Shown one piece after another: positions 9,224 through 53,095 of a DNA stretch of 64,000 bases. The stretch comes from a virus (Duplodnaviria > Caudoviricetes): positions 1 to 64,000 of IMG/VR virus record IMGVR_UViG_3300005076_000003, one strand, 5' to 3'. The notes beneath the pieces are model-generated. The model made no database searches. It was not told where the DNA came from and worked only from the letters and a program-made list of their open reading frames with translations. Positions within the stretch are counted from its first letter, which is position 1, and every line of letters begins with the position of its first letter. Position numbers and translations under genes: made by a program.

Positions 9224-9241
9224 TAAGAGGATTATAATAAA

Positions 9242-9850
9242 ATGATTATTGCTACTGGTAAGGGTTGTAGACGCAGAGCTTATGACACTCACGGAAGAAG
9301 TCAATACTGGCAACGAGTTAAAAATAAGCATGGCTGTATTGTTAAGATACTGTTTGCTAATCTTGAAGAGTCTTTAGCACTAGAGTTAGAAAAAGAGATT
9401 ATAGCAACTCTCAGAAATGACGGTTACGCTCTTTGTAATTTAACAGACGGTGGTGAGGGAACTTCAGGGTATGTTATGCCAGAAGAGCGTAGATTGTCTT
9501 TAAAAGAAAAGAATAAACATTCCTTAGAGCTTGCTCGTTTAGCTAAAATGAACATGGTCATAACAGACGAAGTTCGGTTAAACATGTCCCTCTGTCAGCT
9601 TGGTAAAAAGCATACAGAAGACACAAAACAAAAAATGTCTGCAACACGAAAAGAACACCCACCAAGGTTTGATAGTAATATTTACACATTTTACCATAAA
9701 AACGGTGACGTGTTTACAGGAACAAGGGTGGAACTTTGTCGCGAATATGACCTTAAGACTCAACAAATAAACAACCTTTTTTCGATCAACCCCTTGAAAA
9801 CACAGAAAGGTTGGTCACTTCAAAAATTCCATAACGGAGAATCAAAATAA
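9242..9850 (+). mobile_element. GIY-YIG/NUMOD3 homing endonuclease, N-terminally truncated and fused to MIIA
   Basis: GKGCRRRAY..ALELEKEII..LCNLTDGGEG and GKKHTEDTKQKMS motifs; first GIY strand missing. Confidence 0.85.
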
Positions 9851-9851
9851 A

Positions 9852-10231
9852 ATGATTATTGCACAAGACACCCCACGTTATTCAGATGTGGTTAAATACG
9901 AAAGTAAACCAGATTTAGCCTTTACTCGTGAACTTGTTGTAGTTAACGATACTGCTAAGACACTGCTACTGGTAAATACAAAGAATCTGTACAAACTGCT
10001 ACTGATGGTTCAGAAGCTCCTGTAGCTATTGTTGTTGGTAAAGACTTGCACAACCTAAGCGTTGCTGTCCCTGCTACCACTGATACTAAAGTATTAGCTA
10101 TTGTACGTGGTGAAGCTATTGTACGTAAAACTGGTTTAAAACCACATAGCTCTTTCAACGATGCAACTAAACTTGATGCTGCTTATGCTTCTTTAGCTAC
10201 TAAAGAAATTTTAGCTAACACATCTATCTAA
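9852..10231 (+). pseudogene. Head decoration protein, frameshifted at ~9964
   Basis: MIIAQDTPRYSDVVKYE..RELVVVNDTAKT continues out of frame into ATGKYKESVQTATDGSEAPVAIV. Confidence 0.8.
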
Positions 10232-10259
10232 TAATAACAATAAAGGAAATATATAGAAA

Positions 10260-11282
10260 ATGGCGATTATTCGAGATTATGGTAACGGTTTTAAAGTTAC
10301 CGACTTAACAGAAGAACTTGTATCAATTCCTAACGAATACGGTCTAATCAACCAACTCGGTATCTTTGACGTAGAGCCTGTATCTCAACATACAGTAACT
10401 TTTGAAGCATCTGATCGTGTTATTGGCCTTATTGGTGATAAAGTACGTGGTGAACGTAACAACGTATCTAAAGATGGTACTCGTGTTATGCGTTCATACG
10501 CAATTCCGCACTTCCCTCTTGATGACTACATTACTCCACAAGACGTTCAAGGTCAACGTGCTTATGGTGAAGAAGGCGCAGAGCGTTTAGATGCTGTACG
10601 TGCTCGTAAACTTATGACTATTCGTAAATCACACGCAGCTACGTTAGAAACTGCTCGTTGTAAAGCTCTTACAACTGGTGACATCTACGCACCTAACGGT
10701 ACTGTAGTTGGTAACTTCTACACTGATTTCGGTGTTACTCGCAAACAAGTAGCTTTCGATTTATCTAATGCAGCAGTTAACCCATTAACTAAACAGCGTG
10801 AGATTGTTCATCATATCCGTGACAACATCATGAGTGGCGAAATGCCTACTGAGATTGTTGCAATCTGCTCAAGCGGTTTCTTCGACAAGTATGTAGATAA
10901 TGCTCAAGTTAAAGAAGCTTACAAATTCTATACCTCTACGCAAGAACCTTTACGTAATGGTACATGGGATCAGTTCCGTCACGGTAGTTTGACACTTATC
11001 CGTTACGATGGTTCTTACAAAGATGCAAACGGAAACTCTGTAGCTCTTATCCCAGCAGACGAGGCTTACTTCCTTCCACTAGGCACTGCTGACAGCTTCA
11101 AAACTTACTTCTCTCCTGCTAACAAGTTTGACCTTGCTAACACTCTTGGAGAACAAGCGTATATCTTTGAATATGCTGATGGTAAAGGTTCTAAGATTGA
11201 AATTGAATCAGAATCTAACCTGATCAATATTCTCCGTCGCCCTGCTATTGTGGTTCGTGCTGTAGCTGGTGCTAGTATTTAA
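10260..11282 (+). CDS. Major capsid protein (lambda E-like family)
   Basis: 340 aa; YGLINQLGIF, IPHFPLDD, IEIESESN motifs; highly biased codons. Confidence 0.95.
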   Translation: MAIIRDYGNGFKVTDLTEELVSIPNEYGLINQLGIFDVEPVSQHTVTFEASDRVIGLIGDKVRGERNNVSKDGTRVMRSYAIPHFPLDDYITPQDVQGQRAYGEEGAERLDAVRARKLMTIRKSHAATLETARCKALTTGDIYAPNGTVVGNFYTDFGVTRKQVAFDLSNAAVNPLTKQREIVHHIRDNIMSGEMPTEIVAICSSGFFDKYVDNAQVKEAYKFYTSTQEPLRNGTWDQFRHGSLTLIRYDGSYKDANGNSVALIPADEAYFLPLGTADSFKTYFSPANKFDLANTLGEQAYIFEYADGKGSKIEIESESNLINILRRPAIVVRAVAGASI

Positions 11283-11287
11283 TTAAG

Positions 11288-11331
11288 TTCTAATACAATG
11301 CAACTTCTTAGGGGTTGCATCACTATTAGAA
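11288..11331 (+). terminator. Hairpin after capsid gene
   Basis: TTCTAATA..ATGCAAC / GTTGCAT..TATTAGAA inverted repeat. Confidence 0.5.
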
Positions 11332-11352
11332 TTATAAACAAAGGAAATAATA

Positions 11353-11805
11353 ATGGCATTAACATTAGTCCAAGAAGTTCGACTAAACGTGGGTTTAATT
11401 GGTAATGCCTATGACCTACTTTCTGATGAAGAAATTACTCACTATTTAGAAAAGAATAAGAACAATGTTCGTAGAGCAAGTTTAGATTGTGGTAAGACTG
11501 TGTTATTCATTCTATCTCAATTAACACACACTAAAGCAGATGTTCTTGAATCATGGGATCATGATTGGTTTAATAATTATTATAAAACATTGCAAATGTA
11601 TTTGAATGACCCCAACTTTAGTTTCGCTATTAATGGTGCAATGCCTTATGCTGGTGGGATTAGTGTAGCAGATATTCGAGCTAATGTAGAGAACTACGAT
11701 AACTTGGTTGTTGATGTAGATGCGGGTATTCCTACAGATGGTGATGCTAGTTGCACAAATAATACAAACCAACAAGTGTTTAAGAGATTCCCAAATACTT
11801 TTTAA
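11353..11805 (+). CDS. Head-tail adaptor
   Basis: VRLNVG..LLSDEEITHYL and PYAGGIS motifs; position. Confidence 0.75.
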   Translation: MALTLVQEVRLNVGLIGNAYDLLSDEEITHYLEKNKNNVRRASLDCGKTVLFILSQLTHTKADVLESWDHDWFNNYYKTLQMYLNDPNFSFAINGAMPYAGGISVADIRANVENYDNLVVDVDAGIPTDGDASCTNNTNQQVFKRFPNTF

Positions 11806-11833
11806 ACCTTTTAAAATCTAACACTTTAAGGTA

Positions 11834-12220
11834 GTGAATATGGATTTACAATCTAACCGTTTCAAATCAGGTGCAAAACGATTGATTGATAAGCACGGTA
11901 AGACACGAGTTTACAATAGTATTGGTAGTGAAACATATAATCGTGAAACTCAAACAGTAGAAACAACAAGCACGTTATACACAATCAAGATGTTTGAGAC
12001 AGAACCAAAGTATAAAGAAGTTAAATCTCCTAACCTTGTTGATAAGAAACTGACTGTATTCCTTATCTCTACAACTGACCTACCTGTAAGACCTAAAGTT
12101 GGTGACTTAGTTACTGATATATTCTTAGGTGTAGATGAATCTGTTGAGGTTGTAGAGGTTAGTAAATACGAAGGTTTTGGCGAAGCTTGTATGTGGCGCA
12201 TCCTCTGTGTGAGTGTTTAA
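11834..12220 (+). CDS. Head closure protein
   Basis: LIDKHG, RPKVGD motifs; position. Confidence 0.65.
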   Translation: MNMDLQSNRFKSGAKRLIDKHGKTRVYNSIGSETYNRETQTVETTSTLYTIKMFETEPKYKEVKSPNLVDKKLTVFLISTTDLPVRPKVGDLVTDIFLGVDESVEVVEVSKYEGFGEACMWRILCVSV

Positions 12221-12243
12221 TGGTTTAATTAAAGAGGTGCAGA

Positions 12244-12717
12244 ATGGCTGTATACGAAGGTAAGCAAGGTATTGCTTCATTAAGAGAGAAGATTAAACTT
12301 AAATCTAAAATGCTTGTCGGTGAATCTTTAGAAAAGATCGCTGTAACCTTAGTAGATGAATCTCCATTAGGTGCTCCATACTATCAATCAAAGCAAGGGT
12401 TAATTGCTAACGATGTAGGTGACTTTAAGAACTCTTGGAGCGTTGGTTTAGGTGCAGTTGACCCTACAGTACGTTCTGCTGATACAGATGGTATGGGGGC
12501 TGTTTTAGACGCTATACACAAGAACAAAGCATACAACTTAGAAGATACTGCTTACGTCACTAACAGTATTGACCACGCTAAAATGGTTGAAGATGGTTGG
12601 GACGATAACCCTGAATATGGATGGAAAGCTAAAGGCGGTTATCATGTTGTTGAGAACAATACAGGTTCAGCAGTAGCTATCTTAGAGGCTGTAGCACAAA
12701 AGGTAAGTAAACTGTGA
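12244..12717 (+). CDS. Neck/tail completion protein (HK97 gp10-like)
   Basis: SP..GDFKNSWSVG..YVTNSIDHA..VEDG motifs. Confidence 0.7.
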   Translation: MAVYEGKQGIASLREKIKLKSKMLVGESLEKIAVTLVDESPLGAPYYQSKQGLIANDVGDFKNSWSVGLGAVDPTVRSADTDGMGAVLDAIHKNKAYNLEDTAYVTNSIDHAKMVEDGWDDNPEYGWKAKGGYHVVENNTGSAVAILEAVAQKVSKL

Positions 12718-12726
12718 GGGTATTAG

Positions 12727-13143
12727 ATGCCACAAAAGAATATTAGACTTGCATTTGAAAAGAAGTTGGTAGCTATGCCTTCAGGGTTGGGAGCATCTAA
12801 GACGGCTTTTGAGAATGTAACATTTACCCCAACAGTAGGTACTGCATATCAGCGTTCTGCACTAGCTCCGATTACTCCTGAAAATCCAACATTAGGTGAT
12901 GGGTATTTCCGTGAAGTAGGGTTTTATCAAGTTGTCCTATCATACCCGAAAGGAACAGGTGTTGGTAACATCACAACAATGGCAGAACTTGTGCAAGATT
13001 ATTTTAAAAGAGGAACAACATTAGTTGAGGGTTCGGATAAAATAATAATAGACAGGACTCCGCAAATATCCCCTGTCTACATCAACGACAATAGAGCAGA
13101 GATTACAATAAGAATTAGATACTATTCAGAGCAGTTTGTTTAA
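12727..13143 (+). CDS. Tail terminator protein
   Basis: AFENVTFTP, GFYQVVLSYPKGTG; precedes tail tube. Confidence 0.75.
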   Translation: MPQKNIRLAFEKKLVAMPSGLGASKTAFENVTFTPTVGTAYQRSALAPITPENPTLGDGYFREVGFYQVVLSYPKGTGVGNITTMAELVQDYFKRGTTLVEGSDKIIIDRTPQISPVYINDNRAEITIRIRYYSEQFV

Positions 13144-13233
13144 ATGAGCACTAACAGTTTGATTAATGATTCAATCTCTAATTTAAAATAATTTTAACAA
13201 TTACACAATTAGCAATAATTTTTGGAGTAAATA

Positions 13234-14439
13234 ATGGCAACAGCTTCAGGTATTAATAAAGTAGTATCTTATAAAAAAGAAACTTCTTTTGGTACATTAC
13301 CTTCCCCTACAACTGGTGGACAAACACTTCGCCGAGTATCGTCTACTTTTAACTTAACAAAAGAAACTTATCAATCAGAAGAAATCCGTACAGATTATCA
13401 ATTGGTTGATTTCCGTCATGGTGTTCGTGCTGTAGAGGGCAGTATCTCAGGTGAACTTAGCGCAGGAACTTATGCAGATTTCTTAGCTTCTGCTTTAGCT
13501 CGTAACTGGACAGCAGCTACACCATCAGCTTTAGGTAGTACAACTATTGCCTCTATTGGTGGTACATACACAATCACTCGTACAACAGGTAGTTGGTTGA
13601 CTGATGCAGTTCGTGTAGGTAATGTTATTCGTTTAACAGGTTTTGCTACAGCAAACAACGGTGCTAACTTACTTGTTATTGCTTTAACAGCAACAGTAGC
13701 AACAGTAGTAGCTTTAAACAATGTACAACTAACCCCTGAAACAGTAGCTTCTGGTGGCGCATTTACAGCAACAGGTAAAACGACCTATGCACCTACAACT
13801 GGTCATACAGACGACTCATATACATTTGAAGAATGGTATGCAGATATTGGTCAATCAGAAGTAACAGTAGGTAATAAAGTAAATACTGTAGGTATTGCAC
13901 TTCCTGCAACTGGTTTGACAACTATTGATCTTAGCTTCATGGGTCAAGATTTAAAACAACGAGGAACATCCCAATTCTTCACTTCACCTACAGCTCAAAA
14001 CAGTAACGGTATCTTTGCAGCAGTGAATGGTGCTTTGATTGTGAATGGTGCTCCTGTTGCTCTTGTAACTGGCGCTAACTTCAACATCAACCGTAACATG
14101 ACTTCTGAAGCAGTAGTTGGTAGTAACATTAAACCTGAAATCTACGAAGGTCGTATTATTGTAGATGGTGACGTCACTACTCTATATCAAGACGGTACAT
14201 TCGCTGGCTACTTTGATGATGAAACAGAGATTAGCTTAGTTATCGCTTTAACAGCTAACAACTTACCAAACTCAGAGTTTATGTCTTTCACTATTCCACG
14301 TCTTAAATTGTCTACAGACACTAAAGATGATGGTGAAAAAGGTATTGTTTCTTCTAACTCATTCCAAGCCCTTAAAGGTAATGGTGCAAATGGTTTTGAA
14401 GCAACTACACTGATGATTCAAGATTCTACTTTAGTTTAA
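13234..14439 (+). CDS. Major tail tube protein
   Basis: KKETSFG, LRRVSSTFNL..YQSEEIRTD motifs of the siphoviral tube family. Confidence 0.9.
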   Translation: MATASGINKVVSYKKETSFGTLPSPTTGGQTLRRVSSTFNLTKETYQSEEIRTDYQLVDFRHGVRAVEGSISGELSAGTYADFLASALARNWTAATPSALGSTTIASIGGTYTITRTTGSWLTDAVRVGNVIRLTGFATANNGANLLVIALTATVATVVALNNVQLTPETVASGGAFTATGKTTYAPTTGHTDDSYTFEEWYADIGQSEVTVGNKVNTVGIALPATGLTTIDLSFMGQDLKQRGTSQFFTSPTAQNSNGIFAAVNGALIVNGAPVALVTGANFNINRNMTSEAVVGSNIKPEIYEGRIIVDGDVTTLYQDGTFAGYFDDETEISLVIALTANNLPNSEFMSFTIPRLKLSTDTKDDGEKGIVSSNSFQALKGNGANGFEATTLMIQDSTLV

Positions 14440-14469
14440 AGTGAATTTAAGTTTTAACAAATAACAACA

Positions 14470-14488
14470 AAGGGGTGAAAGCCCCCTT
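14470..14488 (+). terminator. Intrinsic terminator after tail tube gene
   Basis: AAGGGGT-GAAA-GCCCCCTT followed by a T-rich tract. Confidence 0.7.
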
Positions 14489-14526
14489 ACTTATTTATTT
14501 TATATTTTATTTTGAGGATACACAAC

Positions 14527-15338: not shown

Positions 15339-15376
15339 GAACAATGAGAAGCAAAGACTAAACACGAGGAATAGTA

Positions 15377-21289: not shown

Positions 21290-21359
21290 GTAGATGGAGA
21301 GTTTAGGCTCTCCTGATACTCTTTAACACACTAGAGCATTTTAATATTGAGGAAATTAG

Positions 21360-28098: not shown

Positions 28099-28533
28099 TT
28101 ATCTTAATTTCCAAAATACAGCAATATCAACCCTACCATCCCAAAACAAGGCATGTTCTTTACTCTGATCAAACATTACCAAATCCCCCTCTCTAAGAGA
28201 TATAAACTTACCACCTTGATATAACATAGGTACATCCATAGAATCCCTGTACTCCCTCCCCTTCCCAACAGATAGGACAAGTAGAAATACTTTACTACAA
28301 TATTCATAGATATTGTCCACATGAGGAGGGATGCTGCCAACAATCCTACTAATCATTGTGTGATGCTTGTGTTTCATATTATAAACACCAAGCTCTTTTA
28401 AGAAATTCATATCACCGCAATAGTTTTGTGATGAATCATTCACATCACTTATTACAGAAGTGTTCAAATGCTTTCTCAGCTCAGTGAATACGTGTTTATA
28501 ATTGTTGTGACAATTACTCTTAACAATTTGCAT
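28099..28533 (-). CDS. 2OG-Fe(II) oxygenase-like protein
   Basis: IPPHVD ... GDLVMFDQSKEHA (HxD..H). Confidence 0.6.
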   Translation of the reverse strand: MQIVKSNCHNNYKHVFTELRKHLNTSVISDVNDSSQNYCGDMNFLKELGVYNMKHKHHTMISRIVGSIPPHVDNIYEYCSKVFLLVLSVGKGREYRDSMDVPMLYQGGKFISLREGDLVMFDQSKEHALFWDGRVDIAVFWKLR

Positions 28534-28932
28534 GATAATCTCCTAATGGCAAAATCTGCTGCTTAATTTGTTGTGCATAATAATCTCCTAGTTCTTTCTC
28601 ATAACAATTAACTAAGTGCTTAACTAAATCTAATCTTAATTCTAGTTGTTCACCAATCCAAAAGTTATCTGTTTCATTATAAACACCTTGACCTAACACA
28701 GGGTAATCCTTATCACCATAATAAGACTTCCAAGATTTAAAATGCCGTTTATCTACATCATGTCTATACGATAAGTTGTTCCTATATTACCACAAATACT
28801 ACGGTTTTTATCTAATGAGTAACAACCATCATCTGTAGTAAAGAACACAACCATATTGTCTTTTAGTGCAAGCTCTTGTTCTACGCTTAAAATACCTTTC
28901 AAATACTCTAAGATTTCTTGATCTTTATTCAT
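28520..28932 (-). pseudogene. Hypothetical phage gene with single-base frameshift near 28785
   Basis: MNKDQEIL..SICGNI continues in a shifted frame as RNNLSYRHDVDKRHFKSW..DYPV..FWIGEQLELRLDLVKHL. Confidence 0.55.
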
Positions 28933-29225
28933 ATTAAATACTCCTTGTACAGCACTATTGCTGTTTGTGTATTTATCTTAGTTGTTTGATTATGTTGTGT
29001 CAACAATTATTTAACTTGTTTCAACACCCTTATTAAAACATTTTAGTATATTTCCTTAGACAAATAAAAAGAGGACACTATAAAGCATCCTCTTATGTTG
29101 TGTTATGGTATTGTGTTACTGTTTGTGTTATGGTGGTTTATTAAAGAACTTACTTAGCACCAAGATAAACCAATTCATTAAGTATTCAAATAATACTACC
29201 ATATTTACCTCCTCTTGTTAAAATC

Positions 29226-29432: not shown

Positions 29433-30131
29433 TTAACAATAATCTGATAGTTTAACAATACTCAATTTATAGCCATTGTCGAACTTCTGAAATACGCCAC
29501 CTGTATCTAAGAAAGTACAGTTACCAACTTGAGTAACTTCATTCAGAATAAACTTGAAGTACATCTCATCCATTAGTTGTGATAACCCTACATTAATATT
29601 ACTGCTGAAAATATCACTTCGTATTAACTTATCAATCTCCAACATCTTTACTGTTTTAGCAAAGAACACTGCTTCTCTTTCTGTTGTGAATCTGCCTATA
29701 TTAATCCGCTTACCACAATATTTCTTAGTATAAGATTGGTGTTTATCCCGTGTTGGGTCGAAATAACTTCCGCACTCCTTACGAACACTTGTTAAAAACA
29801 GATTCAACTCCTTCGGAATATATAAACAAGTGTTTTCAGAATAAACCTCTCCACTTAGAACATCTTTGTCTAGCACGTACCCTTCAACACAGTTTTTCTC
29901 AAACCAAGCTTTGAAGTTAGATAGTGTCAACCAACTCTCACTGACCGAAACATTACCTAAGTAATCTCCTGTGGTGCAGTAGCATCGTTTCAACATATTC
30001 TTCCAATCTCTATAATACTTAAAGGAATGTCTTTTACCGTTCACAAGCCACTCTTTAGACCCATCAACATCGTCGATACCTACACCGTATACAAGGTTTC
30101 TTTTAAACGTACCATCTTGATTTCGCATCAT
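29433..30131 (-). mobile_element. HNH-family homing endonuclease fused to a phosphatase C-terminal remnant
   Basis: GVGI..WKNMLKRCY..LDKDVL..YSENTC..LN; ends EVTQVGNCTFLDTGGVF. Confidence 0.8.
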
Positions 30132-35338: not shown

Positions 35339-36304
35339 TTAGACAACACGTACTAACTTGTTATTAACACCAATTCGACTTGTTGAGCGCAGCTTAGTGT
35401 TGCAGTGATTGCACACATAAACTTGATACTTACCATTTGGTGTAAATGCAAACTTATCTTCGAGAGGTGTAATATCATCACTACAACACGTAGTACAAAT
35501 AGCTCCAACATTGTCAGACATGATTGCTAAGTTTACAGCATTGTTATCAAACCCGCGTAAACGTTTATATAACTCTCGTGTAATTTCTACATCGACACGG
35601 TTATACTTCTCCATATGAATCAGTGCTTCATCATCACCAGCACAACATTTCTTCCATAGTGAGAATCCGTCATGTGGTAACTTCTCACCAATGTCTAAGT
35701 ATTCACACAAATCGTTAAGTTTGTTGCTAGGGAAAGCAAATCGAGCTTTTGCAATCTCTAGCGTGTCAATAATCTTGTAAGGAGATGGTGATGGAAGATT
35801 GTAGTAGGCAAAGCGTGAGTTGATCTTCTTAATATCAAAACGTCTCAAGTTATGTCCAACTACCACATTACTGTTATCTAACACATGCCATAACTTAGTG
35901 ATTAAAACCTCGTCATCTTCGTTTAGAGCTTCATTAGAGGTTAGGCGCAAGCTATGTACCTCGTTCTCGTTAAAAGCCCAAGAAGCCGTTAGAAAGAAGC
36001 TCTCAGAGAGGATTTGAGCTTGACTAATGTTCTCTTTAAAACGTCTCCATGTGTAACTCTTAGTTGGTGAACATTCAATGTCTAAGTAGCAAATCTTAGG
36101 TTGGTTGTTCTCAACTTTATCAACAGATGTTTCAGGAAGTTCAAGATATTGTTCAGCGATCTCGTCTTTATCTACCATACGCTTTAAATAACCTTGAATT
36201 GTGGTTCTTGGGATACCTAGAATCTTAACTGCTGATCTTTGTGAATGACCATCGTTAATAAGTTCTAGGTAGTCGATGTAATCTTGCTGGGTAATCTTAC
36301 TCAA
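35339..36304 (-). CDS. RNase H-like (DnaQ/YprB) exonuclease with N-terminal HTH
   Basis: YLDIE, VGHNLRRFD, IDTL, YNRVDV; C-terminal Zn ribbon. Confidence 0.8.
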   Translation of the reverse strand: MSKITQQDYIDYLELINDGHSQRSAVKILGIPRTTIQGYLKRMVDKDEIAEQYLELPETSVDKVENNQPKICYLDIECSPTKSYTWRRFKENISQAQILSESFFLTASWAFNENEVHSLRLTSNEALNEDDEVLITKLWHVLDNSNVVVGHNLRRFDIKKINSRFAYYNLPSPSPYKIIDTLEIAKARFAFPSNKLNDLCEYLDIGEKLPHDGFSLWKKCCAGDDEALIHMEKYNRVDVEITRELYKRLRGFDNNAVNLAIMSDNVGAICTTCCSDDITPLEDKFAFTPNGKYQVYVCNHCNTKLRSTSRIGVNNKLVRVV

Positions 36305-36680
36305 TTGTAAACTCCTTTAAAACATCTGCTTTAATAATCTCTTGTAAGTTACTCTCGTACTCGTAGAAAGGTAGTTGTTTCAAACCTAGTACATCAGAAG
36401 CATTCCGAATAAACTCTTTCTCTGTAATTAGATAACACTTGTAGTTTTTAACTTCTGATAGGTTATTAACACCAAAGAAATCTAAACAAGCTTTAATCAT
36501 TTCACAACCATAAGCTGTTCCTACACGTTTCTGCTTATCTTTATCGTATGTATCTAAGACAACATTAAATACAGATAAACCTCCACCATCAACTAACTCT
36601 ACATTCACATCTAAGATAAGAATCTTTCGGTCTTGATAGTTAGTTGTAACACTCTTTACGTTACACAATTGGTAATTCAT
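36297..36680 (-). CDS. Hypothetical protein
   Basis: ORF in operon. Confidence 0.6.
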   Translation of the reverse strand: MNYQLCNVKSVTTNYQDRKILILDVNVELVDGGGLSVFNVVLDTYDKDKQKRVGTAYGCEMIKACLDFFGVNNLSEVKNYKCYLITEKEFIRNASDVLGLKQLPFYEYESNLQEIIKADVLKEFTIE

Positions 36681-37179
36681 TAATCTTCTCCTTCATTATT
36701 ACTTCAAGTATTTCGTCCATACTGTGTGTTCGCTTTAGTATGAACTTTTTAAATATTAACTTACGTTGAGTTCCATTGCAACCTTTTTCTTCATTAAAAT
36801 GCAATAAAATATTCTGTTTCTGTTTTTCATTTAGTTTGTTGAATTGAACTTGAAGTTTCTTAATGAATGCAGGGTGTAAATACTTTTGCTCGTGTTCCTT
36901 GTCAAGATACTCAGCACAACCTCTAAGGAAGTCTGAAAGTGTACCTTCATACCACCACTTTATATAACGAATATAAGCGTTTTCTATTTTACCCAATAAA
37001 ACATTAGTCTGTCGGTGTAACACTCCCCTAACAAACTGTGTATTATGGTCATGATCAAGTACAGCTTGGTTTGGTGGTATCGCAAGACCCGTAATTAAGT
37101 CAAGCCCCTCTTGTTCAATAAGTAAATCTTCTCGAACTTTCTGAACATCTTTCACTGAATATAAATGTTTTGGATTCAC
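36661..37179 (-). CDS. Recombination endonuclease VII-like resolvase
   Basis: VLDHDH..VRGVLH..N..LGKIEN. Confidence 0.85.
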   Translation of the reverse strand: MNPKHLYSVKDVQKVREDLLIEQEGLDLITGLAIPPNQAVLDHDHNTQFVRGVLHRQTNVLLGKIENAYIRYIKWWYEGTLSDFLRGCAEYLDKEHEQKYLHPAFIKKLQVQFNKLNEKQKQNILLHFNEEKGCNGTQRKLIFKKFILKRTHSMDEILEVIMKEKINELPIV

Positions 37180-37760
37180 TTTTTAACCTCCCACAATAAC
37201 AAGGCTTCGAAAACATGGTTATCTAACATATCTTTCCACTCTAAAGCAACCTCTTTAACATAAGCTTCTTTAAAATTTTTATACGAGATAAAAGCTTCCT
37301 CTGGATTATCAAAATATCCCAAGTGTTTCTTTTTTCCTTTATACATACAATCTGCTTTGAATAACCCAGTACGTTTGTAAAAACTAACACCTGTTGGGAA
37401 TTTCCCTTTCGATGTTACCTTGTTAGTGATTAAGCTATTAATGGCTTTTGGTATGAAACAACAAGTTTCCTCTGAATATAGGTGACTGTCTCCTAATAAA
37501 TCTTTATCTAACTCAAACCCATTCTGTAAAAAACCTTTTTGTGTTTTACACCAATTGTCAAAGGAAGAAAAAACCTTAAACCCTTCTGACACCCTACAAT
37601 TCTTATAACAAACCCTCTCATACGTTCTGTAACACCGATCTAACATCCTCGTCCAGTAGCGGTAAGATTTGGTTTTAGACTTTCTTCTAGCAACAAGTTT
37701 TACATCTAGAACACCCACACTTGCATTTGTTGGTAAAATTTCTTGATTATCTTCAATCAT
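37176..37760 (-). mobile_element. HNH-family homing endonuclease
   Basis: WTRMLDRCY..FELDKDLL..YSEETCCFIP..IN; AP2-like KKHLGYF. Confidence 0.8.
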
Positions 37761-38697
37761 TATTAACTCCTTTCATAAATAAATCCAAATCAAACACCTT
37801 ACCACGCTCTTTAGTAATATAAACCAACTTACCAGTGAGGGTTAAAGCATCTTTCCAAGTATTACCATACGTTAGTTTATAGATTTCAATAACACGTTTT
37901 TTCATTTCTATTTTAGAGTGCTTAACATCCTCTAATAACTTCTCTGCTGTATTCTTACCAATAGATTTAACCTTTACATTAAACGCTTCTCTAAGCTCTG
38001 TAGAGACAAAATCAATGCCACGTATGAAGTCAGTGCTGTCACCAATTAACAACTGTGTACTTAGGTTATAGAAGGCTTGTATGGGGTTAATGTAGAACAC
38101 GCCCAAACCAAGATTATTGTAGTTTAAGAACAAACCATGATGTCCTTCTAAATCCTTGTCAATGTAAGCTCGAATACCTAATGGGTCTAAAGCAGCATCA
38201 GCGATTACAAAATCTTCGCTCTCATAACCATGTACAACTTCAATCTTCCCTTTGTATTTGTTCAACATATAGTTGAAGCAGTGTTTGTGTAGAGCTGGTT
38301 TTGCTCCACGATTAGATTTATATTCAGGGTAGACATCATAACGGAAATTGTCTTTACCTTGAATATACAACCTATAATCATTAACCCAATCGAAACCAAC
38401 AATAGAATCAACCTTACTCTTAACATTAGATAAAGCAAAACCGATAGTTGGTATAACAAAATCGTTTACTTCAAAGTTCTTCCCTTTTGGGTCATTTAAT
38501 AAGAAATCATCAAAAGAATTGAAGTTTTCAAACTCTTTCTTTCTACCACTTGCTTTGTGTGTAACAACACAAGAGTCTTTGGAACAAGCTGCTGCACATG
38601 CGTAGGCGATTGTGTCACAGTCGATATATAAGTTATATTTCTGTGTTGGGTCAAACTTGGTGAAGTCATAACGACTAAAATCTCGACTCATATTCAC
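37753..38697 (-). CDS. 5'-3' exonuclease (T7 gp6/T5 D15-like)
   Basis: YIDCD, NFRYDVYPEYKSNR, ESED, DKD, GDSTD..G. Confidence 0.88.
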   Translation of the reverse strand: MNMSRDFSRYDFTKFDPTQKYNLYIDCDTIAYACAAACSKDSCVVTHKASGRKKEFENFNSFDDFLLNDPKGKNFEVNDFVIPTIGFALSNVKSKVDSIVGFDWVNDYRLYIQGKDNFRYDVYPEYKSNRGAKPALHKHCFNYMLNKYKGKIEVVHGYESEDFVIADAALDPLGIRAYIDKDLEGHHGLFLNYNNLGLGVFYINPIQAFYNLSTQLLIGDSTDFIRGIDFVSTELREAFNVKVKSIGKNTAEKLLEDVKHSKIEMKKRVIEIYKLTYGNTWKDALTLTGKLVYITKERGKVFDLDLFMKGVNND

Positions 38698-38773: not shown

Positions 38774-38881
38774 TTAACTATTAACAGCTTCTTCAAGCTC
38801 TAAGAACGAATTAAGTTTAGCTACTGTTTCACCTAATTTTGATGTAGCAGTTAGTTTACCAATCTTATTCAAATCAGTCAT
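38774..38881 (-). pseudogene. Orphan C-terminal half of a GapR/DsbA-like gene
   Basis: MTDLNKIGKLTATSKLGETVAKLNSFLELEE aligns with the C-terminus of 39651-39881 (17 of 34 identical by hand). Confidence 0.8.
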
Positions 38882-39638
38882 TGTAGTCAACCTCCCAATT
38901 TATTAAAGCTTCATAAACTCTAGGATCAATCTGTTCTTTCCATTTATTAGCAACCTCTTTGATGTAGGTTTCTTTCGCTTGCTTGTAAGCTAGGAATGCA
39001 GACTCCTCGCACTGGTGTAATCCTAAAAATACAGATTTACCTTTTATACTCAGAGATGCAGAATATTTTAATAAAGCTTTATTAAAATAGACACCTAAAG
39101 GTTGCTCTCCTCTGTGGTTTTTTCTTAAAGTGAATAACCCATTAATCTCTTGAGGTACAAAACAACAAGTTGTTTCACTATACACCTTATTACCTTTCAC
39201 CAAAATATCCTTATCTAAGTGGAACAGTGCCCCTTTTTCATCTATAGAGTTAAAACCAACTTGCTTATTACACCAATCTTTGAAATAAGTAAAGTATTTA
39301 AAGTTATCAGATACTTTACAATCTACGTATGTGGTACAATGGTATTGTTGAGACTTTCTTTCATAGTAACACCTCTTTAACACCTCTACCCAAACAAGAT
39401 AGTGTGGTTTATCATCTTCAGATATTGTACAAAAACCTGTTACACCAACACCGAACACGCTAGGTAACAAGTAGTCTTTTACTTCTCCTTTGTTTATGCT
39501 TGATATATCAACACGGTATTCACAACCTGTACTTAAGAATCGTATTAGCCTTTTATTATCGTTCCCAGTCTTGCTCAATATCTTAAAAACTCCACAATTG
39601 TTGGAATGTACAGTGTCCCCAACTCGGTATCTACCCAC
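38874..39638 (-). mobile_element. HNH-family homing endonuclease
   Basis: WVEVLKRCY..HLDKDIL..YSETTCCFVP.EIN; paralog of 44103 and 59842. Confidence 0.85.
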
Positions 39639-39650
39639 CCCTTATACTCC

Positions 39651-39881
39651 TCAATCTAAGCTCTCAACTAACTCTGAAAACTCTGCCATTTTTAACATAG
39701 TTTCACCCAATTTCTGTGTTGCTTTTAATTTAGCTACCTTGTTCAAATTATTCCATTTTACTTCAGGTAATTCTTCATCTACTACAGTTTTAATATCTTT
39801 AAGTTCTTCGTTTAAAGTATCAATCTCTTGGTGAATTGAAATGATACGCTCTAGTAGTTGCTTTACTTTAGTTAAATTCAT
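39651..39881 (-). CDS. GapR/DUF2312/DsbA-like DNA-binding protein
   Basis: KQLLERI..EI..LNEELKDI pattern. Confidence 0.55.
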   Translation of the reverse strand: MNLTKVKQLLERIISIHQEIDTLNEELKDIKTVVDEELPEVKWNNLNKVAKLKATQKLGETMLKMAEFSELVESLD

Positions 39882-41236: not shown

Positions 41237-41248
41237 TTCATACTCTCC

Positions 41249-41626: not shown

Positions 41627-41638
41627 TTTGTTACTCCT

Positions 41639-44020: not shown

Positions 44021-44102
44021 TTTTACTCCTTATAAAACGCAAAAGAACAGATGAAGCAATAATACCTCATCTGTTCTAGTGTTGTCTATACGTGTTTACA
44101 CA

Positions 44103-44873: not shown

Positions 44874-44885
44874 GTTTCACCTCCT

Positions 44886-46757: not shown

Positions 46758-46770
46758 AATATTCTCCTAA

Positions 46771-47097: not shown

Positions 47098-47148
47098 TTT
47101 GTTCTCCTTAGAACTTCTTTGCTCAATGTGAGCATCTTCGATACGAGC

Positions 47149-47626: not shown

Positions 47627-47653
47627 CTAAATAATCAAATAAGGAGATGTGTT

Positions 47654-48247
47654 ATGATTTTTGAAGACTTACATAAAATGATGTTAAATGTAAACAAAGA
47701 TAGTTTAGATAAATCCATTGCTGACTGTCATGTTAAAGATGTGTTTTCTTTGGTTGTTGGCGGTACAGAGCATGGTAATCTTACTCGTGTGTTCATTGCA
47801 ACAAAGAAGATTAGACCGTTTGATATTCAATTTCACTCACACCGTTATGGTTTAAGAATAGGGGTTATTAACGGTGTGTTTGAACACCATGTGGCTATTA
47901 AAGCCAAAGGTAAATCCAACACTAATCGCGTCGGTTTAATTGAGTATGACTACAAATCACCTTTGAATGGTGGAAACGGGTTAACTAAGATTGGTCAAGG
48001 TGTTTACGACCTTACTTCTTATAAAGTTCCTGTTGGTGGAGAGATGTATTTACCACACGATTTAGTTCACTCTGTTTCGTGTTCCAAAGGTTCTATGTGG
48101 GTTGTGCAAGAGTTAGGTTTTAGAGATGATTCTAGTGTTGTGTTAGGAACAGATTTCTCAACAGTAGGTTTGTACAATGCACCAAAACAGTTTCAAGTGA
48201 ACAATATGTACGAACAAGTGCTTGAGAAATTGAAGAAGTTAGTTTAA
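47654..48247 (+). CDS. Cupin-fold protein
   Basis: FHSHRY..H and GGEMYLPHDLVHSV. Confidence 0.5.
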   Translation: MIFEDLHKMMLNVNKDSLDKSIADCHVKDVFSLVVGGTEHGNLTRVFIATKKIRPFDIQFHSHRYGLRIGVINGVFEHHVAIKAKGKSNTNRVGLIEYDYKSPLNGGNGLTKIGQGVYDLTSYKVPVGGEMYLPHDLVHSVSCSKGSMWVVQELGFRDDSSVVLGTDFSTVGLYNAPKQFQVNNMYEQVLEKLKKLV

Positions 48248-48258
48248 GGTAGATTGAT

Positions 48259-48543
48259 ATGAACAGCATATACCAAGAGACTATCAACAAACTTAAAAAT
48301 GAATTAGATTATCATCCATTACTAGAAGAAGCTTGCAAGCTTCTTGTTTTAAAACATAACCCTTGTCCAAGTCAATGTAATTTAGAATATTACTACTTTA
48401 ATGGAACTAACAAACTTAAGAAGGTTTATATAAAAATTGATGATATTATTCATGCAATTGTTTTCTGTGGTAACATTGTGATGAATGATGATCCAAATGT
48501 GTTAGTACATACAAAACCGTATATAATTTATTTAGGAGATTGA
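48259..48543 (+). CDS. Hypothetical protein
   Basis: ORF in operon. Confidence 0.5.
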   Translation: MNSIYQETINKLKNELDYHPLLEEACKLLVLKHNPCPSQCNLEYYYFNGTNKLKKVYIKIDDIIHAIVFCGNIVMNDDPNVLVHTKPYIIYLGD

Positions 48544-48544
48544 G

Positions 48545-48820
48545 ATGGGTTTATGGGCTAGAGCGATAATTGTGTGTAGTAAACCTAAAAAGATTAATTT
48601 AAAAAGCGTTGTCAGTGAAAGTTTAAAGAGTAATTTTGGAAAATTAGATGAAACTTGCATTTCTTCAAGATATTCAAAAGAGAAAGGGGTTGTTGTTGAT
48701 ATAAGTACCACACATGTTGGTGAGATATTTAACCAAATCATAGAGCAGATGATTAACGATCTTAAAAAAGAAGACGTTGGTTATTTTTATGTAGAGGTGG
48801 AAAGCAACTATTATATTTAG
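48545..48820 (+). CDS. Hypothetical protein
   Basis: ORF in operon. Confidence 0.55.
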   Translation: MGLWARAIIVCSKPKKINLKSVVSESLKSNFGKLDETCISSRYSKEKGVVVDISTTHVGEIFNQIIEQMINDLKKEDVGYFYVEVESNYYI

Positions 48821-48921
48821 GTTGTGCTTAATTTGACAACCTTGTTGCATTAGGTTAACATACACATAAGGAGAAGCTAAATGCTTCTCCTTTTTTATTA
48901 ACATGAATACAGGAATTAATT

Positions 48922-49416
48922 TTGACATATATTAAACAAATACATAAACACTTAACAACCGCTATCAAATGTGCTGTTATTGCTCTCTCATTGTCACTTG
49001 TAGCGACTTTACAGGCTAAGGGCATAAATGATAGCTCTCAAACACAAACACTCTCTAAACGTCAAATAGAGTGCTTATCAAAAGCAGCTTACTTTGAGAG
49101 TAAAGGAGAAAGTGATAAAGGAATGTTAGCGGTCATACACACAACACTGAATAGGGTTAAAGACAACAGATTCCCCAAGACAGTTTGTGGTGTAGTGTAT
49201 CAAAAATCTCAATATTCTTGGACGAAGTACAATCCTAAAGTAAAAGAACAAGAGCAGTACGCAAGAGCTGAGAGATTAGCTAAAGAAGTTGTTGCTGGTA
49301 AACACAAAGATAACACTCAAGGTGCTTTGTATTTTAACTCATTACACCGAAAACCAAGTGGAACAGTGTGTACTGTAAGGATCGGAGGGCATAGTTTCTA
49401 CAAACCTGTTAAATAG
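48922..49416 (+). CDS. SleB-like cell wall hydrolase with signal sequence
   Basis: CLSKAAYFESKGE..AV..LNRV..FPKTVCGVVYQ..QYSW, GALYF, IGGHSFY. Confidence 0.9.
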   Translation: MTYIKQIHKHLTTAIKCAVIALSLSLVATLQAKGINDSSQTQTLSKRQIECLSKAAYFESKGESDKGMLAVIHTTLNRVKDNRFPKTVCGVVYQKSQYSWTKYNPKVKEQEQYARAERLAKEVVAGKHKDNTQGALYFNSLHRKPSGTVCTVRIGGHSFYKPVK

Positions 49417-49522
49417 TTTAAATAAAATGTAATTTCATCTAATTAAAACCTTTACAATTTAAATCAGTTTATATATGATTGTTTTATCGAAATGATTGTG
49501 AAGGTTTTATAAGGAAAGAGTT

Positions 49523-49966
49523 ATGAATGACTTAACATTGCAACAAATGGAAAAACTTGGTCTATCTAAGTGGATGAATGAAAAAGAGCGAGAGAAGGTT
49601 ATTGAAAAAGCTCTTGAAGAGCAAAAGGAGTTGATTGCTAATGACTCACACAAAGAGGTATTTGATGCTTTACGAACAACAGATGAAATCTTAGTACAAG
49701 GTGGTTTGTTTACTTGGAAATTGGGAGATCGTACTGTACGTTGTTCTGTATTAACACCACAAGATATGCAGTTACTAGATAATATTAGTAATGATGTAGA
49801 ACAAGGTGTTGAATATAAAGAGTTACCAATTAAATACCGCTACCATGTAAAGACTGCTTTAGGGAATTATTTATTTATTAAAGCAAAATCTTATGATGAA
49901 GCTAAGAAAGTTGTTGACAGCATACTCGGTACAGGGTTATACTCGCCATCAGCAGGCAATATTTAA
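49523..49966 (+). CDS. Hypothetical protein
   Basis: ORF with RBS after a promoter-like region. Confidence 0.6.
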   Translation: MNDLTLQQMEKLGLSKWMNEKEREKVIEKALEEQKELIANDSHKEVFDALRTTDEILVQGGLFTWKLGDRTVRCSVLTPQDMQLLDNISNDVEQGVEYKELPIKYRYHVKTALGNYLFIKAKSYDEAKKVVDSILGTGLYSPSAGNI

Positions 49967-50005
49967 TTAGTGCATTAAATTAATATTTAAATTAGGAGAA
50001 ACAAA

Positions 50006-50872
50006 ATGAAATACAAAGTTGGTGATAAAGTTAAGATTGTTTCACTACAGAGTGTAGATCGAGGTTATTGTATGGATGTTGTAGGTGATATCGTGGAGAT
50101 TATTAAATATGATTCATCCGATATTTTGAAATATAAAGTTAAAATCGAAGACGGTGGTCGTTGGTGGTGGGAAGAATCTAACTTAGAATTAATTGAAGAT
50201 GTTAAACCAAATACAATTAAAGAAGAGACAGAGATGAATGCAACAAAGGTAGAAAATACAACACCAAAATTTAAGAAAGGTGACAAGGTTGTTCGTGTAG
50301 GTGACACATTAGCATTAGGTGTTGAGTTGGGTGAAGTGTATACCGTAGACAATCCAAGTAGTCATAGTAGTTCTTACGGGGGTGAATTACATAATCACGT
50401 AACATTAGTAGAAGTCGAAAGTACACCTAGCGACAAATACCTTGAGTTGTATAATCACGTAATATTAGAAGAAGTTGAAAGTATGCCTATTGATAATCAC
50501 CTTGTGTTGTGTATTGAAAAACGCAACTATCGTGAAATGAGTCCAAACGATTTAATTACAATCTCAATTAATGGTGTTGAATCAGAAGTACCTCTAGGAG
50601 ATATTGTTCATGCCGTAGCTATTCTTGGTATTACGAACGGTTATCATGGTGCTCGTATTTGGGATGCTTTACGCAAACCTTTTGACCCTGAAGGTTTTGT
50701 AGGAGATATGGATACAGTAGTTGAGTTTAGAGATAAACAAAAAGAAGCTCTTGAGTATTTCTTTCAACCATGTTATGATAAGCAACAACAAGAGAAAGAT
50801 GAATTGAAAACTCTTATTGCTTCTAAAATGGAAGAAGTAGATTCTTTGGTTAAACAGCTAAATCAGATGTAG
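50006..50872 (+). CDS. Modular protein with two SH3/KOW-like domains
   Basis: KYKVGDKVKI and KFKKGDKVVR repeats; internal duplication with 60-bp period. Confidence 0.6.
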   Translation: MKYKVGDKVKIVSLQSVDRGYCMDVVGDIVEIIKYDSSDILKYKVKIEDGGRWWWEESNLELIEDVKPNTIKEETEMNATKVENTTPKFKKGDKVVRVGDTLALGVELGEVYTVDNPSSHSSSYGGELHNHVTLVEVESTPSDKYLELYNHVILEEVESMPIDNHLVLCIEKRNYREMSPNDLITISINGVESEVPLGDIVHAVAILGITNGYHGARIWDALRKPFDPEGFVGDMDTVVEFRDKQKEALEYFFQPCYDKQQQEKDELKTLIASKMEEVDSLVKQLNQM

Positions 50873-50881
50873 GGAATACAA

Positions 50882-51070
50882 ATGCGTACATACAACAAAG
50901 GTAATACACAAAACGTAAAGCAAGCTCGTAAACAGAGTAAAGAATTGCGTAAATTGAAGATGGCTAATGGAAGCACAATCACTTTTATTGGAGAGACTGA
51001 TGAAGCTTTCAAAGGGTTACAACATAGTTATCATTATGAAGATGATTTTGTTTATGAAGGAGATTGGTGA
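50882..51070 (+). CDS. Hypothetical protein
   Basis: ORF in operon. Confidence 0.5.
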   Translation: MRTYNKGNTQNVKQARKQSKELRKLKMANGSTITFIGETDEAFKGLQHSYHYEDDFVYEGDW

Positions 51071-51318
51071 TGAAACAACTACCTGAAACACCAACAGAAG
51101 ATATGTGGGGCGGTACAGCTCGACAATTAGTTAAGTATATGCAGATGAAAGATCGTTATTGTCCTGCTTCATTGAAGAAACACTTTGATCGATTTATTGG
51201 AGAAATTCCTGAGTGGTTAAATGAAGAAGTAAATGATTGGACATCTGAACACGCTTTTGCAACTGCTGATCTTGGTGTGTTTATTTATAAAGCAATGTAT
51301 CACGAATTTAAAAATTAA
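51064..51318 (+). CDS. Hypothetical protein
   Basis: ORF in operon. Confidence 0.55.
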   Translation: MVMKQLPETPTEDMWGGTARQLVKYMQMKDRYCPASLKKHFDRFIGEIPEWLNEEVNDWTSEHAFATADLGVFIYKAMYHEFKN

Positions 51319-51475
51319 CTATTTTAAAAGAAACTTCATTTATGTGTTGTTTCTTTTATTTTATCTTGATATACTTATCACACACAAATGAGATTAGTTA
51401 TGAAAATATTAGAGAATTGTAAGAACTTGGTTAAGTTGTATATTAAGTTATTTAAGCAAAGTTGGAGGTTGTAAG

Positions 51476-51700
51476 ATGATTGATTGGATTCGTATTGAAG
51501 AAAGAACACCTGAACTTGGTGATTACTCTGTACTAATTTGGTTTGAAGATGGTTCTTGGGATATGGTACACGTTGAAGACTGGTTTGGAGATATTACTAA
51601 TGGTCTTGATGAGAACGGTGTACTACAATATACTAAATGGTATCTAAGACAACCTGTAACGCATTGGGCTTACGTTAATACGCCAGAGGATTTATTGTGA
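51476..51700 (+). CDS. DUF551-like protein
   Basis: WIRIEERTPE..VLIW..VTHWA. Confidence 0.7.
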   Translation: MIDWIRIEERTPELGDYSVLIWFEDGSWDMVHVEDWFGDITNGLDENGVLQYTKWYLRQPVTHWAYVNTPEDLL

Positions 51701-51966
51701 ATAATCAATCTTATTTTACAACATCATCTGTACAAACAATGCAAGGGTTACTAGGGCAGCTAGGAGTTAAAGTAGATTACTCTAAGCACAAAGAAGCTAA
51801 TGTTTTAATATTATTAGATACAGGTGTTTATTTATTATCTTCTGTTAATGCACCAGATCGTAGTTGTAAGACGTATTTAAGTGATAAAGATATTGCAATG
51901 CAGGTTGATGTAGTGGATATTATGAAAGTTACCCAACAGAGTGTTTGTTGGTGTGAGTTATACTAA
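51697..51966 (+). CDS. Hypothetical protein
   Basis: ORF coupled to the upstream gene. Confidence 0.5.
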   Translation: MNNQSYFTTSSVQTMQGLLGQLGVKVDYSKHKEANVLILLDTGVYLLSSVNAPDRSCKTYLSDKDIAMQVDVVDIMKVTQQSVCWCELY

Positions 51967-52174
51967 CTACGTATCAAAATTAATTAAAGGAGATTTAAAA
52001 TGACAGTTGTATATGAAAGTAAATATATTACTATTGAGGAAACACCTGCTGGTTGTTTTATTTCAGATGAACGTAGAAACACTACAGTTCAAGTAGGTGA
52101 ACTTGCGGATATTAACGCAATTGTTAACAGTTTAGAACGTCTTAAATCAGAATGGTATAGTGAGGAGAAGTAAA

Positions 52175-52393
52175 ATGAACAGTATTGAAAATCGTTGTGT
52201 GATGTTAGATCAAGAAATTGACGAATTAAAAGCTGAGATTCTTGGTGAGTTTGTTTGTAACGATGAAGAAGATAAGATTGACGAATTAATTGATTTAGCT
52301 ATGATGTTAGGAGAAGCTTATGTTTATCGAGATAACACTGTAACAAAGATTGTTAAACCAGAAGATGTGGCTGAAGCATATAAACAAGATTAA
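52175..52393 (+). CDS. Acidic hypothetical protein
   Basis: GAGGAG RBS before ATG (MNSIE). Confidence 0.55.
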   Translation: MNSIENRCVMLDQEIDELKAEILGEFVCNDEEDKIDELIDLAMMLGEAYVYRDNTVTKIVKPEDVAEAYKQD

Positions 52394-52404
52394 GGAGAAA
52401 GAAG

Positions 52405-52557
52405 TTGAAACAAGTTGTATTATTTGATGCACCAGAGAATATTGATCAGAAAGTGGTTTTCTTAGCGCGAGTATCGAGTGAAAACCAAGACAATCCTAAG
52501 TATGAAGGTTTGATGAACTACCTTATTCGAGAAGGTCATGAAACATATGGTAAATGA
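52405..52557 (+). pseudogene. thyX: N-terminal fragment of a second, divergent thyX allele
   Basis: TTG start with AGGAG; FLARVSSENQDN..LMNYLIREGH; homology ends at the HNH ATG (52538). Confidence 0.85.
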
Positions 52558-53095
52558 AGATTCAGCTTTTGATGAAAAATACAGTATCGACACATTTGGA
52601 AATCTTGTGAACTTAAAAACAGGGAAGTTCTTAAAGTTCAGAAAAGATAAAGACGGATACTTGGTTTGTAATTTACGTATAAACGGAAAGAGGGTTACAA
52701 GATTTCAACATAGGTTATTAGCAATAAAATATCTAGCAAATCCTGAAAATAAAACGCAGGTTAACCATATAAATGGGATAAAACACGATAATAGCTTACA
52801 CAATTTAGAGTGGTCAACGAGAAGTGAGAACATGCTACATTCAACACATGTTCTAGGTAATCCAAAACCCCCAAGTAATAAAGGTAATACTGGCGTAAAA
52901 TCTCCTTTGAGTAGACATATTGTAGGTATAAGTGTTTTAGATGACACATGTTTAATTTTTGCAGGTCAAAAAGATGCTCAACGACAAACCAATTCGCATT
53001 TTAAACAAAGTAATATTTACACAAGCATAAAAACAGGCTGCTCACATAAAGGGTATATCTGGTCATTTTTAGAGGAAGTTGAAGATAATGTTTGA
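52538..53095 (+). mobile_element. HNH homing endonuclease (I-HmuI/NUMOD4-like)
   Basis: HRLLA..QVNHINGIKHDNSLHNLEWSTRSENMLH. Confidence 0.92.

Follow-up and report, generated by a model that had tools for sequence, protein, structure and literature searches.

Homing endonucleases of phages are usually pictured in the gaps between genes, in introns or within inteins. Fungal mitochondria have so far provided the known examples of a fourth arrangement, in which the element inserts in a coding sequence and brings along a gene end, or a whole gene, of its own. Such elements, termed mORFs, were described in atp6 of Allomyces (Paquin, Laforest and Lang 1994) and in atp6, atp9, cox2 and nad3 of Glomus (PMC3630166), and C-terminal duplications of atp6 and cob lie beside endonuclease open reading frames (ORFs) in fungal mitochondria (PMC6279837). 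Here, four loci were examined in the first 64 kb (the window) of an 81.9-kb tailed-phage genome of 35% G+C (IMG/VR record IMGVR_UViG_3300005076_000003), at which an endonuclease gene sits in (i) a small gene labelled 'GapR-like', (ii) thyX, (iii) a NinI-like Ser/Thr phosphatase gene and (iv) the head decoration gene. The four loci are probably site-specific mobile endonuclease cassettes that lie inside genes without an intron or intein and employ parts of the resident gene as homology arms. Exact insertion points, empty as well as occupied alleles, recurrence across backgrounds and discordant divergence of cassettes and flanks were all observed. A first-pass annotation of the window had drawn the same four architectures, and each of them was confirmed, as were the overlaps of start and stop codons at the breakpoints.

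The genome (G000) encodes a Mu-like portal, a lambda-E-type capsid protein and a gpD-like decoration protein. GenBank phages provided distant relatives only, and a megablast of window positions 9000-12000 against them gave no match. Several relatives were supplied by IMG/VR and more by ENA/Logan contigs (L-numbers denote loci or contigs of relatives, L013 being the decoration locus of G004). The closest relative, G004 (79 kb), is collinear with the window; G003 and G001 (81 kb each) are further related genomes, and there are short contigs whose capsid genes are 99-100% identical to those of the window. Empty sites, for which the first-pass annotation had suggested a survey of relatives, were found at all four loci: 13 related loci in which the scaffold gene is directly followed by the decoration gene; four cassette-free alleles of the GapR-like gene (G003, L125, L128 and L130); intact thyX of 230 and 228 amino acids (aa) in G004 and G003, respectively; and an intact phosphatase of 235/236 aa in G001 and L143.

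At the GapR-like locus, the cassette consists of a foreign 3′ half and a gene for an HNH-AP2 endonuclease of 254 aa, and its junction with the target falls precisely between codons 44 and 45. The whole 76-codon gene (39651-39881, minus strand) is read in a single frame across the junction, and the homing endonuclease gene (HEG) begins 12 nucleotides (nt) past its stop. It is a near-perfect match to the gene of G004 until codon 44 and then diverges; the remnant beyond the HEG starts at codon 45 and is of resident type. At the nucleotide level the foreign half is 56-62% identical to the resident-type alleles of G003, G004 and L125 and 74% to that of L128, and the remnant in the window is 94% identical to its matching empty allele. 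Across the occupied contigs, remnants share 92-94% with their matching empty alleles versus 57-68% with the inserted half beside them. The remnant is 91% identical to the G003 gene (E=1e-14) and was linked to the whole gene within the genome at E=8e-7 (BLASTP). Every residue that is invariant in a four-sequence alignment is preserved in the inserted half, an indirect sign that the hybrid gene may be the functional, expressed copy. The chimerism that had been predicted at the breakpoint is therefore borne out at this locus, with a resident 5′ half, a foreign 3′ half and a displaced resident 3′ half.

The same cassette recurs in other backgrounds. A query with the divergent half returned eight 76-aa proteins with the same 3′ half and three different 5′ halves (the contigs of two of them were looked up, and the window and L082 were also counted). 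Wherever downstream sequence suffices (window, L082, L115-118, L120, L121 and L123), the 76-aa form is followed by the 254-aa HEG; wherever the contig extends past the HEG (L123 ends inside it), a native-type remnant follows, starting inside the endonuclease stop codon in every case. The type of remnant is the partner of the local 5′ half: ...ELEEAVNS in the window, the G004 type ...TLNDDLHS in L082, and a third type in L115-L120. Nine contigs are thus occupied at the same codon, and the cassette is present in at least three resident allele backgrounds. The 5′ half of L115-120 is only 67% identical to that of the window at the nucleotide level, and between the window and L117 these 67% compare with 91% for the foreign 3′ halves and 94% for the endonuclease genes; that is, the cassette is more alike between genomes than its flanks, which is the mark of horizontal spread.

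The near-isogenic empty alleles L128 and L130 map the insertion site as AAATGGAAT^GACTTGAATAAG, between Asn44 and Asp45. The HEG-less L125 and L126 carry the AAT of the cassette at codon 45, which is GAT or GAC otherwise, and the inserted half of L121 opens with sequence of the resident type; both observations point to recombination between the gene halves. A search of IMG/VR with an exact 20-mer of the foreign half hit only the L082 contig, and no HEG-free donor allele was identified. As for the target gene itself, no match to the GapR (DUF2312) family was obtained, the Pfam family Phage_DsbA was sub-threshold (E=0.012; 16 bits versus a cut-off of 25), and PHROG 639, a 'transcriptional regulator', matched at E=4e-5; the label 'GapR-like', which stems from the first-pass annotation, is unsupported by these profile matches and is kept here as a name. 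At 38877-38895 of the window, the end of the endonuclease coding sequence (…WEV…) forms both a GGAGG and an ATG in frame with the displaced 3′ half that follows; gene callers report a 35-aa ORF here, which may be translated.

At thyX, the 45-codon resident fragment is identical in protein to the start of the intact thyX of both G004 (E=1e-25) and G003, with 16 nucleotide differences (dN 0.009, dS 1.0 versus G004); it is a recently truncated resident gene. Within-genome BLASTP gave no link between the fragment and the full thyX downstream, and the link came from the relatives. The full gene is foreign: its exteins are 83% identical in amino acids to thyX of Acinetobacter phage BS46 versus 43% to the G004 or resident type, and the RHR...S...SxR motif of ThyX is reconstituted across the intein when they are joined. 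In phiAB441 and in the five database relatives whose contexts were looked up (43-87% identity), the HNH gene likewise overlaps a BS46-type thyX at its start; upstream of the HNH gene, phiAB441 and L148 have no thyX fragment. In L131-L139 the same resident fragment type is cut after the same His. In L140/L141, where the HNH protein is only 52% identical, a quite different thyX allele is cut after the homologous His codon. Therefore, the breakpoint is a property of the element and not an accident. The first-pass annotation had placed the breakpoints of thyX and of the phosphatase gene at catalytic motifs, which is correct: they lie after the His preceding WS/YS and at GDLV|DRG, respectively. The intein is missing from thyX of BS46, phiAB441, L140 and L148, and the thyX locus thus harbours two independent selfish elements. 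A terminator-like block stands directly after the stop of the foreign thyX; the genes that precede it differ between the window, L140, G003 and G004, and it appears to be a shared module boundary for recombination. No close relative of either the thyX HNH gene or the phosphatase HEG was present in IMG/VR, and those used here came from a large protein collection.

The phosphatase locus differs in that nothing is substituted. The 5′ fragment, which ends at the GDLV of the GDxxDRG motif, is 88% identical to the intact G001 gene, and the HNH-AP2 ORF (29433-30131 overall, 232 aa) closes with 38 residues that are phosphatase residues 198-235. Codons 51-197 (147 codons, including the catalytic middle) are replaced by the endonuclease, and there is no other phosphatase copy in the genome (the gene is absent from G004); the phosphatase gene is therefore destroyed. 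The second, divergent gene half that had been postulated here does not exist, the two pieces being the two ends of one gene. Among 31 HEG relatives of about equal length (48-97% identity), the in-frame tail was found in 13 of the 13 that were read. In L145 (48%), a different phosphatase allele is cut at the same VGDx point, and in L146, L147 and P0092 the 5′ phosphatase fragment is decaying. Between the window and L147 the tail has a dS of 2.4 and a dN/dS of 0.06 versus a dS of 0.44 for the HEG body; the tails therefore derive from different resident, formerly functional alleles, and the HEG is the newcomer. The HEG body itself is under purifying selection (dN/dS 0.18).

These observations bear on the least probable of the explanations considered, under which a group I intron or intein would restore the genes by splicing, or the fragments would come from tandem duplication and divergence, or from misassembly. 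Endonuclease genes of phages do often reside in introns (PMC10448857), and thyX holds a real intein. No splice, however, could restore a phosphatase gene without its middle 147 codons, and no Rfam intron was detected in the window at gathering thresholds, a scan that weak or novel introns could escape. The fragments are nearly identical to alleles of other phages and not to the neighbouring copy. The same cassette structures turn up in IMG/VR, ENA and Logan assemblies, which speaks against misassembly.

At the decoration locus, the 223-aa endonuclease ORF of L013 opens with the native ribosome-binding site (RBS) and the first 14 decoration coding bases, as found at the empty site of L012, and the decoration gene restarts behind the endonuclease with a GGAG and an ATG of its own. 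The insertion is therefore at codon 5, with a new gene start supplied by the cassette, and the replacement cargo amounts to an RBS and four codons only. In the window the native start, seen also at the empty sites of L001, L002 and L012, now serves as the start of the GIY-YIG ORF. This ORF has an in-frame deletion of ~63 nt by which the GIY and YIG strands, kept in the copy of L013/G004, are gone. The decoration gene of the window is shifted in frame by a 31-nt deletion, and six aligned relatives read through in one frame; the deletion could in principle be an assembly variant. A programmed frameshift was considered for this gene and dropped, as the relatives reveal a plain deletion. The GIY-YIG ORF has the 11-mer GCTACTGGTAA at its deleted 5′ junction (9252-9262), and the decoration gene has it right after the 31-nt deletion (9961/9962); this is a hint of a connection between the two deletions, for instance by template switching in the course of repair.

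Genome-wide, endonuclease genes are numerous. The HNH-AP2 family (PHROG 953) has five mutually similar copies within the window and up to four more past its end (two only distantly similar, one split in two), hence at least five in the genome and nine by looser similarity; in addition there are two HNH_3 genes, one GIY-YIG gene and one HNH-bearing intein. The split paralogue (G000 80176-80954, past the window) consists of ORFs 80400-80954 and 80176-80472 and is a decaying copy. A genome-wide scan against three relatives located fragments of target genes only beside endonucleases, and no such fragments adjoined endonucleases other than those of the known loci. It is very improbable, then, that the four loci are unrelated one-off accidents of illegitimate recombination or deletion beside endonuclease genes with no common logic. 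Their outcomes do differ (a half, a whole gene, four codons or nothing replaced), and the phosphatase gene is simply destroyed, as such accidents would allow; identical junctions were nevertheless found in independent assemblies from different samples and allele backgrounds, and the restriction of fragments to the neighbourhood of endonucleases is hard to square with chance.

Another explanation is that the loci are relics of single ancient insertions that spread passively by general recombination, with endonucleases that no longer drive, or never drove, the process and with fragments that are neutral scars. For example, at 55853-57101 and 36125-36304 there are mosaic junctions within genes with no endonuclease near (one such mosaic has matches of 18-22 N-terminal and 46 C-terminal residues to G004 ORFs around unrelated sequence), and recombination inside genes thus happens away from HEG sites as well. 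These junctions fit passive spread, as do the defective GIY-YIG copy and the unconfirmed nuclease fold of the HNH-AP2 proteins. We nevertheless regard passive relics as unlikely: the HEG bodies evolve under purifying selection and keep their full length across the 31 relatives, cassettes are far more alike between backgrounds than their flanks, and at both thyX and the phosphatase gene, unrelated alleles are interrupted at one and the same codon.

Several points weigh against mobile cassettes all the same. The supporting contigs are mostly short metagenome assemblies. The HNH-AP2 family matches only PHROG 953/374, labelled 'HNH endonuclease'; it is without a Pfam HNH match and has an invariant D-K-D where HNH has D-H. 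A PDB profile search with the family returned AP2 domains only, Foldseek gave no match at E<=0.001 and NCBIfam none, and fold searches recognised only an N-terminal beta-barrel and the AP2 domain (VIA-align Z<=6.3); the case for HNH-AP2 nuclease activity therefore rests on the PHROG label and the mobility pattern. The GIY-YIG copy of the window, with its catalytic motifs missing, is certainly defective, and only two occupied decoration sites are known (G004/L013 and the window). Ordinary homologous recombination in the flanks, with no cutting involved, could also carry a cassette from one background to another. At thyX, with a downstream gene that is foreign throughout, a precise insertion cannot be told apart from gene replacement with an illegitimate left join.

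If the four loci are mobile cassettes, as we favour, each would be flanked by two parts of the resident target gene acting as homology arms. A relative infecting the same cell would have its uninterrupted allele cut by the endonuclease, at the insertion point or close to it, and repair would copy the cassette from the occupied genome, as in intronless homing; that the site is cleaved, that occupied alleles resist and that repair takes this route is inferred. First entry into a foreign allele may proceed by one-sided or illegitimate break repair, and one-sided homing with illegitimate junctions was shown experimentally in T4 (Parker, Belisle and Belfort 1999, as summarised in PMC2988022). At the GapR-like locus the diverged 3′ half would enter upstream of the endonuclease, with the native 5′ half reading into it and the remaining native 3′ half (38774..38875) serving as the right arm. 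At thyX the endonuclease would arrive upstream of a complete foreign gene and displace the native one from codon 46 to the terminator block, with the 5′ fragment (52405..52539) as the left arm and the terminator-like block (54731..54841) as the right. The decoration cassette would take over the native start and supply a new RBS and first codons, and the phosphatase cassette would supply nothing and replace the middle of a dispensable gene.

The first-pass annotation had envisaged intron-less cassettes that carry a replacement half of the target. That model is right for the GapR-like locus and, taken more broadly, for two others (a whole foreign gene at thyX, a minimal start at the decoration gene), and it fails for the phosphatase gene. 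A wider reading is that cassettes in this phage group routinely carry a substitute gene end on either side, with the displaced native end as a homology arm, and so repeatedly make chimeric alleles and swap core genes such as thyX between distant lineages, leaving AAT footprints when they are lost; we put this forward tentatively, at somewhat less than an even chance. The AAT codon-45 alleles L125 and L126 would then be footprints of cassette loss through recombination between halves. They may be immune to re-invasion, which would make a complete cycle of gain and loss readable from metagenomes.

Features of the four loci in the window, in order of position
Feature	Position	Strand	Evidence or remark
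Left copy of 17-nt direct repeat AATAAAATGATTATTGC	9236..9252	+	Native RBS-proximal sequence and first decoration codons
GIY-YIG-type homing endonuclease gene, degenerate	9242..9850	+	PHROG 314, NUMOD3
Right copy of 17-nt repeat	9846..9862	+	Cassette-borne decoration restart, own GGAG RBS upstream
Head decoration gene, lambda gpD-like	9852..10231	+	Restart at 9852; 31-nt deletion between 9961/9962
Resident phosphatase 3′ end (residues 198-235) as in-frame ORF tail	29433..29549	-	87% identity to G001, E=2e-17
HNH-AP2 endonuclease body (phosphatase locus), residues 1-194	29550..30131	-	PHROG 953, E=2e-45; ATG overlaps fragment stop
Resident 5′ fragment of NinI-like Ser/Thr phosphatase, 50 codons	30128..30280	-	Metallophos Pfam E=9e-6; PHROG 246 E=1e-17
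GapR-like gene, displaced native 3′ half, codon 45 to stop	38774..38875	-	Starts inside endonuclease stop codon
254-aa HNH-AP2 endonuclease gene	38874..39638	-	Profile matches; AlphaFold2 model
GapR-like gene, cassette-borne foreign 3′ half, codon 45 to stop	39651..39749	-	Completes gene
GapR-like gene, resident 5′ half, codons 1-44	39750..39881	-	91% nt identical to G004
Resident thyX 5′ fragment, 45 codons, ends ...REGH	52405..52539	+	45/45 residues identical to G004 thyX
HNH_3/NUMOD4 homing endonuclease gene	52538..53095	+	Pfam HNH_3 E=1.9e-8, above cut-off; NUMOD4
Foreign BS46/phiAB441-type thyX, complete save for intein	53079..54740	+	Pfam Thy1 E=3.6e-34
Intein with HNH domain in ThyX motif	53361..54350	+	…FSFQEF|C … HN|SQRYA
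Conserved terminator-like block (hairpin and downstream)	54731..54841	+	Homology to G003, G004 resumes

Further endonuclease genes surround the GapR-like locus. In G004, the GapR-like gene and the flap endonuclease gene are separated by a second, different HNH-AP2 gene of 244 aa (L040 12819-13553), and in L082 this gene (1394-2128) follows the remnant, which places two endonuclease genes in tandem at one locus. The flap endonuclease (5′-3′ exonuclease) comes in two very different types at the same position (window 37753-38697; L040 11817-12815; L041 10953-11945), that of the window being 51% identical to the G001 protein and 26% to that of G003. Another HNH-AP2 gene (37176-37760) is found between the flap endonuclease of the window and EndoVII. 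EndoVII (36661-37179) was itself considered as a homing endonuclease and dropped, since both relatives checked, G003 and G004, keep it at the same position.

Outside these loci, the first-pass annotation had raised a possible further case, a tRNA gene at 144-756. The HNH_3 gene there (144-761) is free-standing, upstream of an ORF-free region (798-1430) and with no duplicated target beside it; G003 and G004 have empty sites of ~80-130 nt. Its link to a tRNA was dropped, since no tRNA fragment adjoins it and ARAGORN found no tRNA in the window. The only match of the Rfam scan of the window, a tRNA-like one that ARAGORN does not call, is at 1422-1487 (45.7 bits), where the matching region of G001 holds a tRNA-Ser(tga) and that of G004 an odd tRNA with a 4-base anticodon call; the sequence in the window looks like a decaying tRNA gene. 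At 28520-28968 (minus strand), an ORF that encodes 133 aa in G004 is split by a single-base deletion (TATA-GG versus TATATGG); the frameshift is either real or due to an error in sequencing.

Taken as mobile cassettes, the four loci would account for orphan gene fragments that lie beside endonuclease genes and are annotated as small hypothetical ORFs. They would also offer a concrete mechanism for chimeric alleles and for the replacement of core metabolic genes between distant phages, and yield exact predicted target sites, such as that at codon 44/45 of the GapR-like gene, for the uncharacterised HNH-AP2 family. Occupied, empty and footprint alleles co-occur in wastewater metagenomes, and the cycle of invasion and loss is thus directly testable.

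Among known systems, HEG-bounded modules of ICP1 and other phages (Barth, Dunham and Seed 2023, PMC10448857) are similar in that many HEGs per genome bound recombination tracts by core genes; a term search of that paper returned no description of target-gene halves duplicated around an endonuclease. The intronless homing of T4 SegF, SegG and MobE (PMC2988022) likewise involves free-standing genes beside their target, co-inheritance of donor flanks, start or stop overlaps with neighbours and illegitimate junctions where one flank is without homology. These genes sit between genes, however, whereas the insertions described here are inside coding sequence, and duplication or replacement of part of the target is a constant feature of the element. 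T4 MobA in gene 60 and Aeh1 mobE in nrdA (PMC2988022; bioRxiv 10.1101/2022.08.31.505936) resemble the present cassettes in occupying a critical region of a gene that still works, yet there the gene is split into two polypeptides that reassemble, and here a substitute end or gene completes the target and the displaced part is unused.

By this comparison, the mORF of fungal mitochondria is the closest precedent, and for the GapR-like locus an exact one. The inserted end is in phase and followed by the endonuclease, and the native end is displaced downstream and remains nearer to the allele of related genomes than to the inserted end. The first-pass annotation had seen no description of a repeated, genome-wide pattern of this sort in one phage, while half acknowledging the organellar parallel; the kind of element is in fact already known as the mORF (PMC3630166), and in the literature searched no mORF-type element was found described in phages. 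The present loci differ from mORFs in their phage host, in their HNH-AP2 or HNH_3 endonucleases as opposed to LAGLIDADG or GIY-YIG, and in their mirror-image forms, in which the endonuclease lies upstream and a 5′ end or a whole gene is replaced. They differ, too, in that a single phage genome spans the range from replacement of a gene end to plain destruction of the gene.

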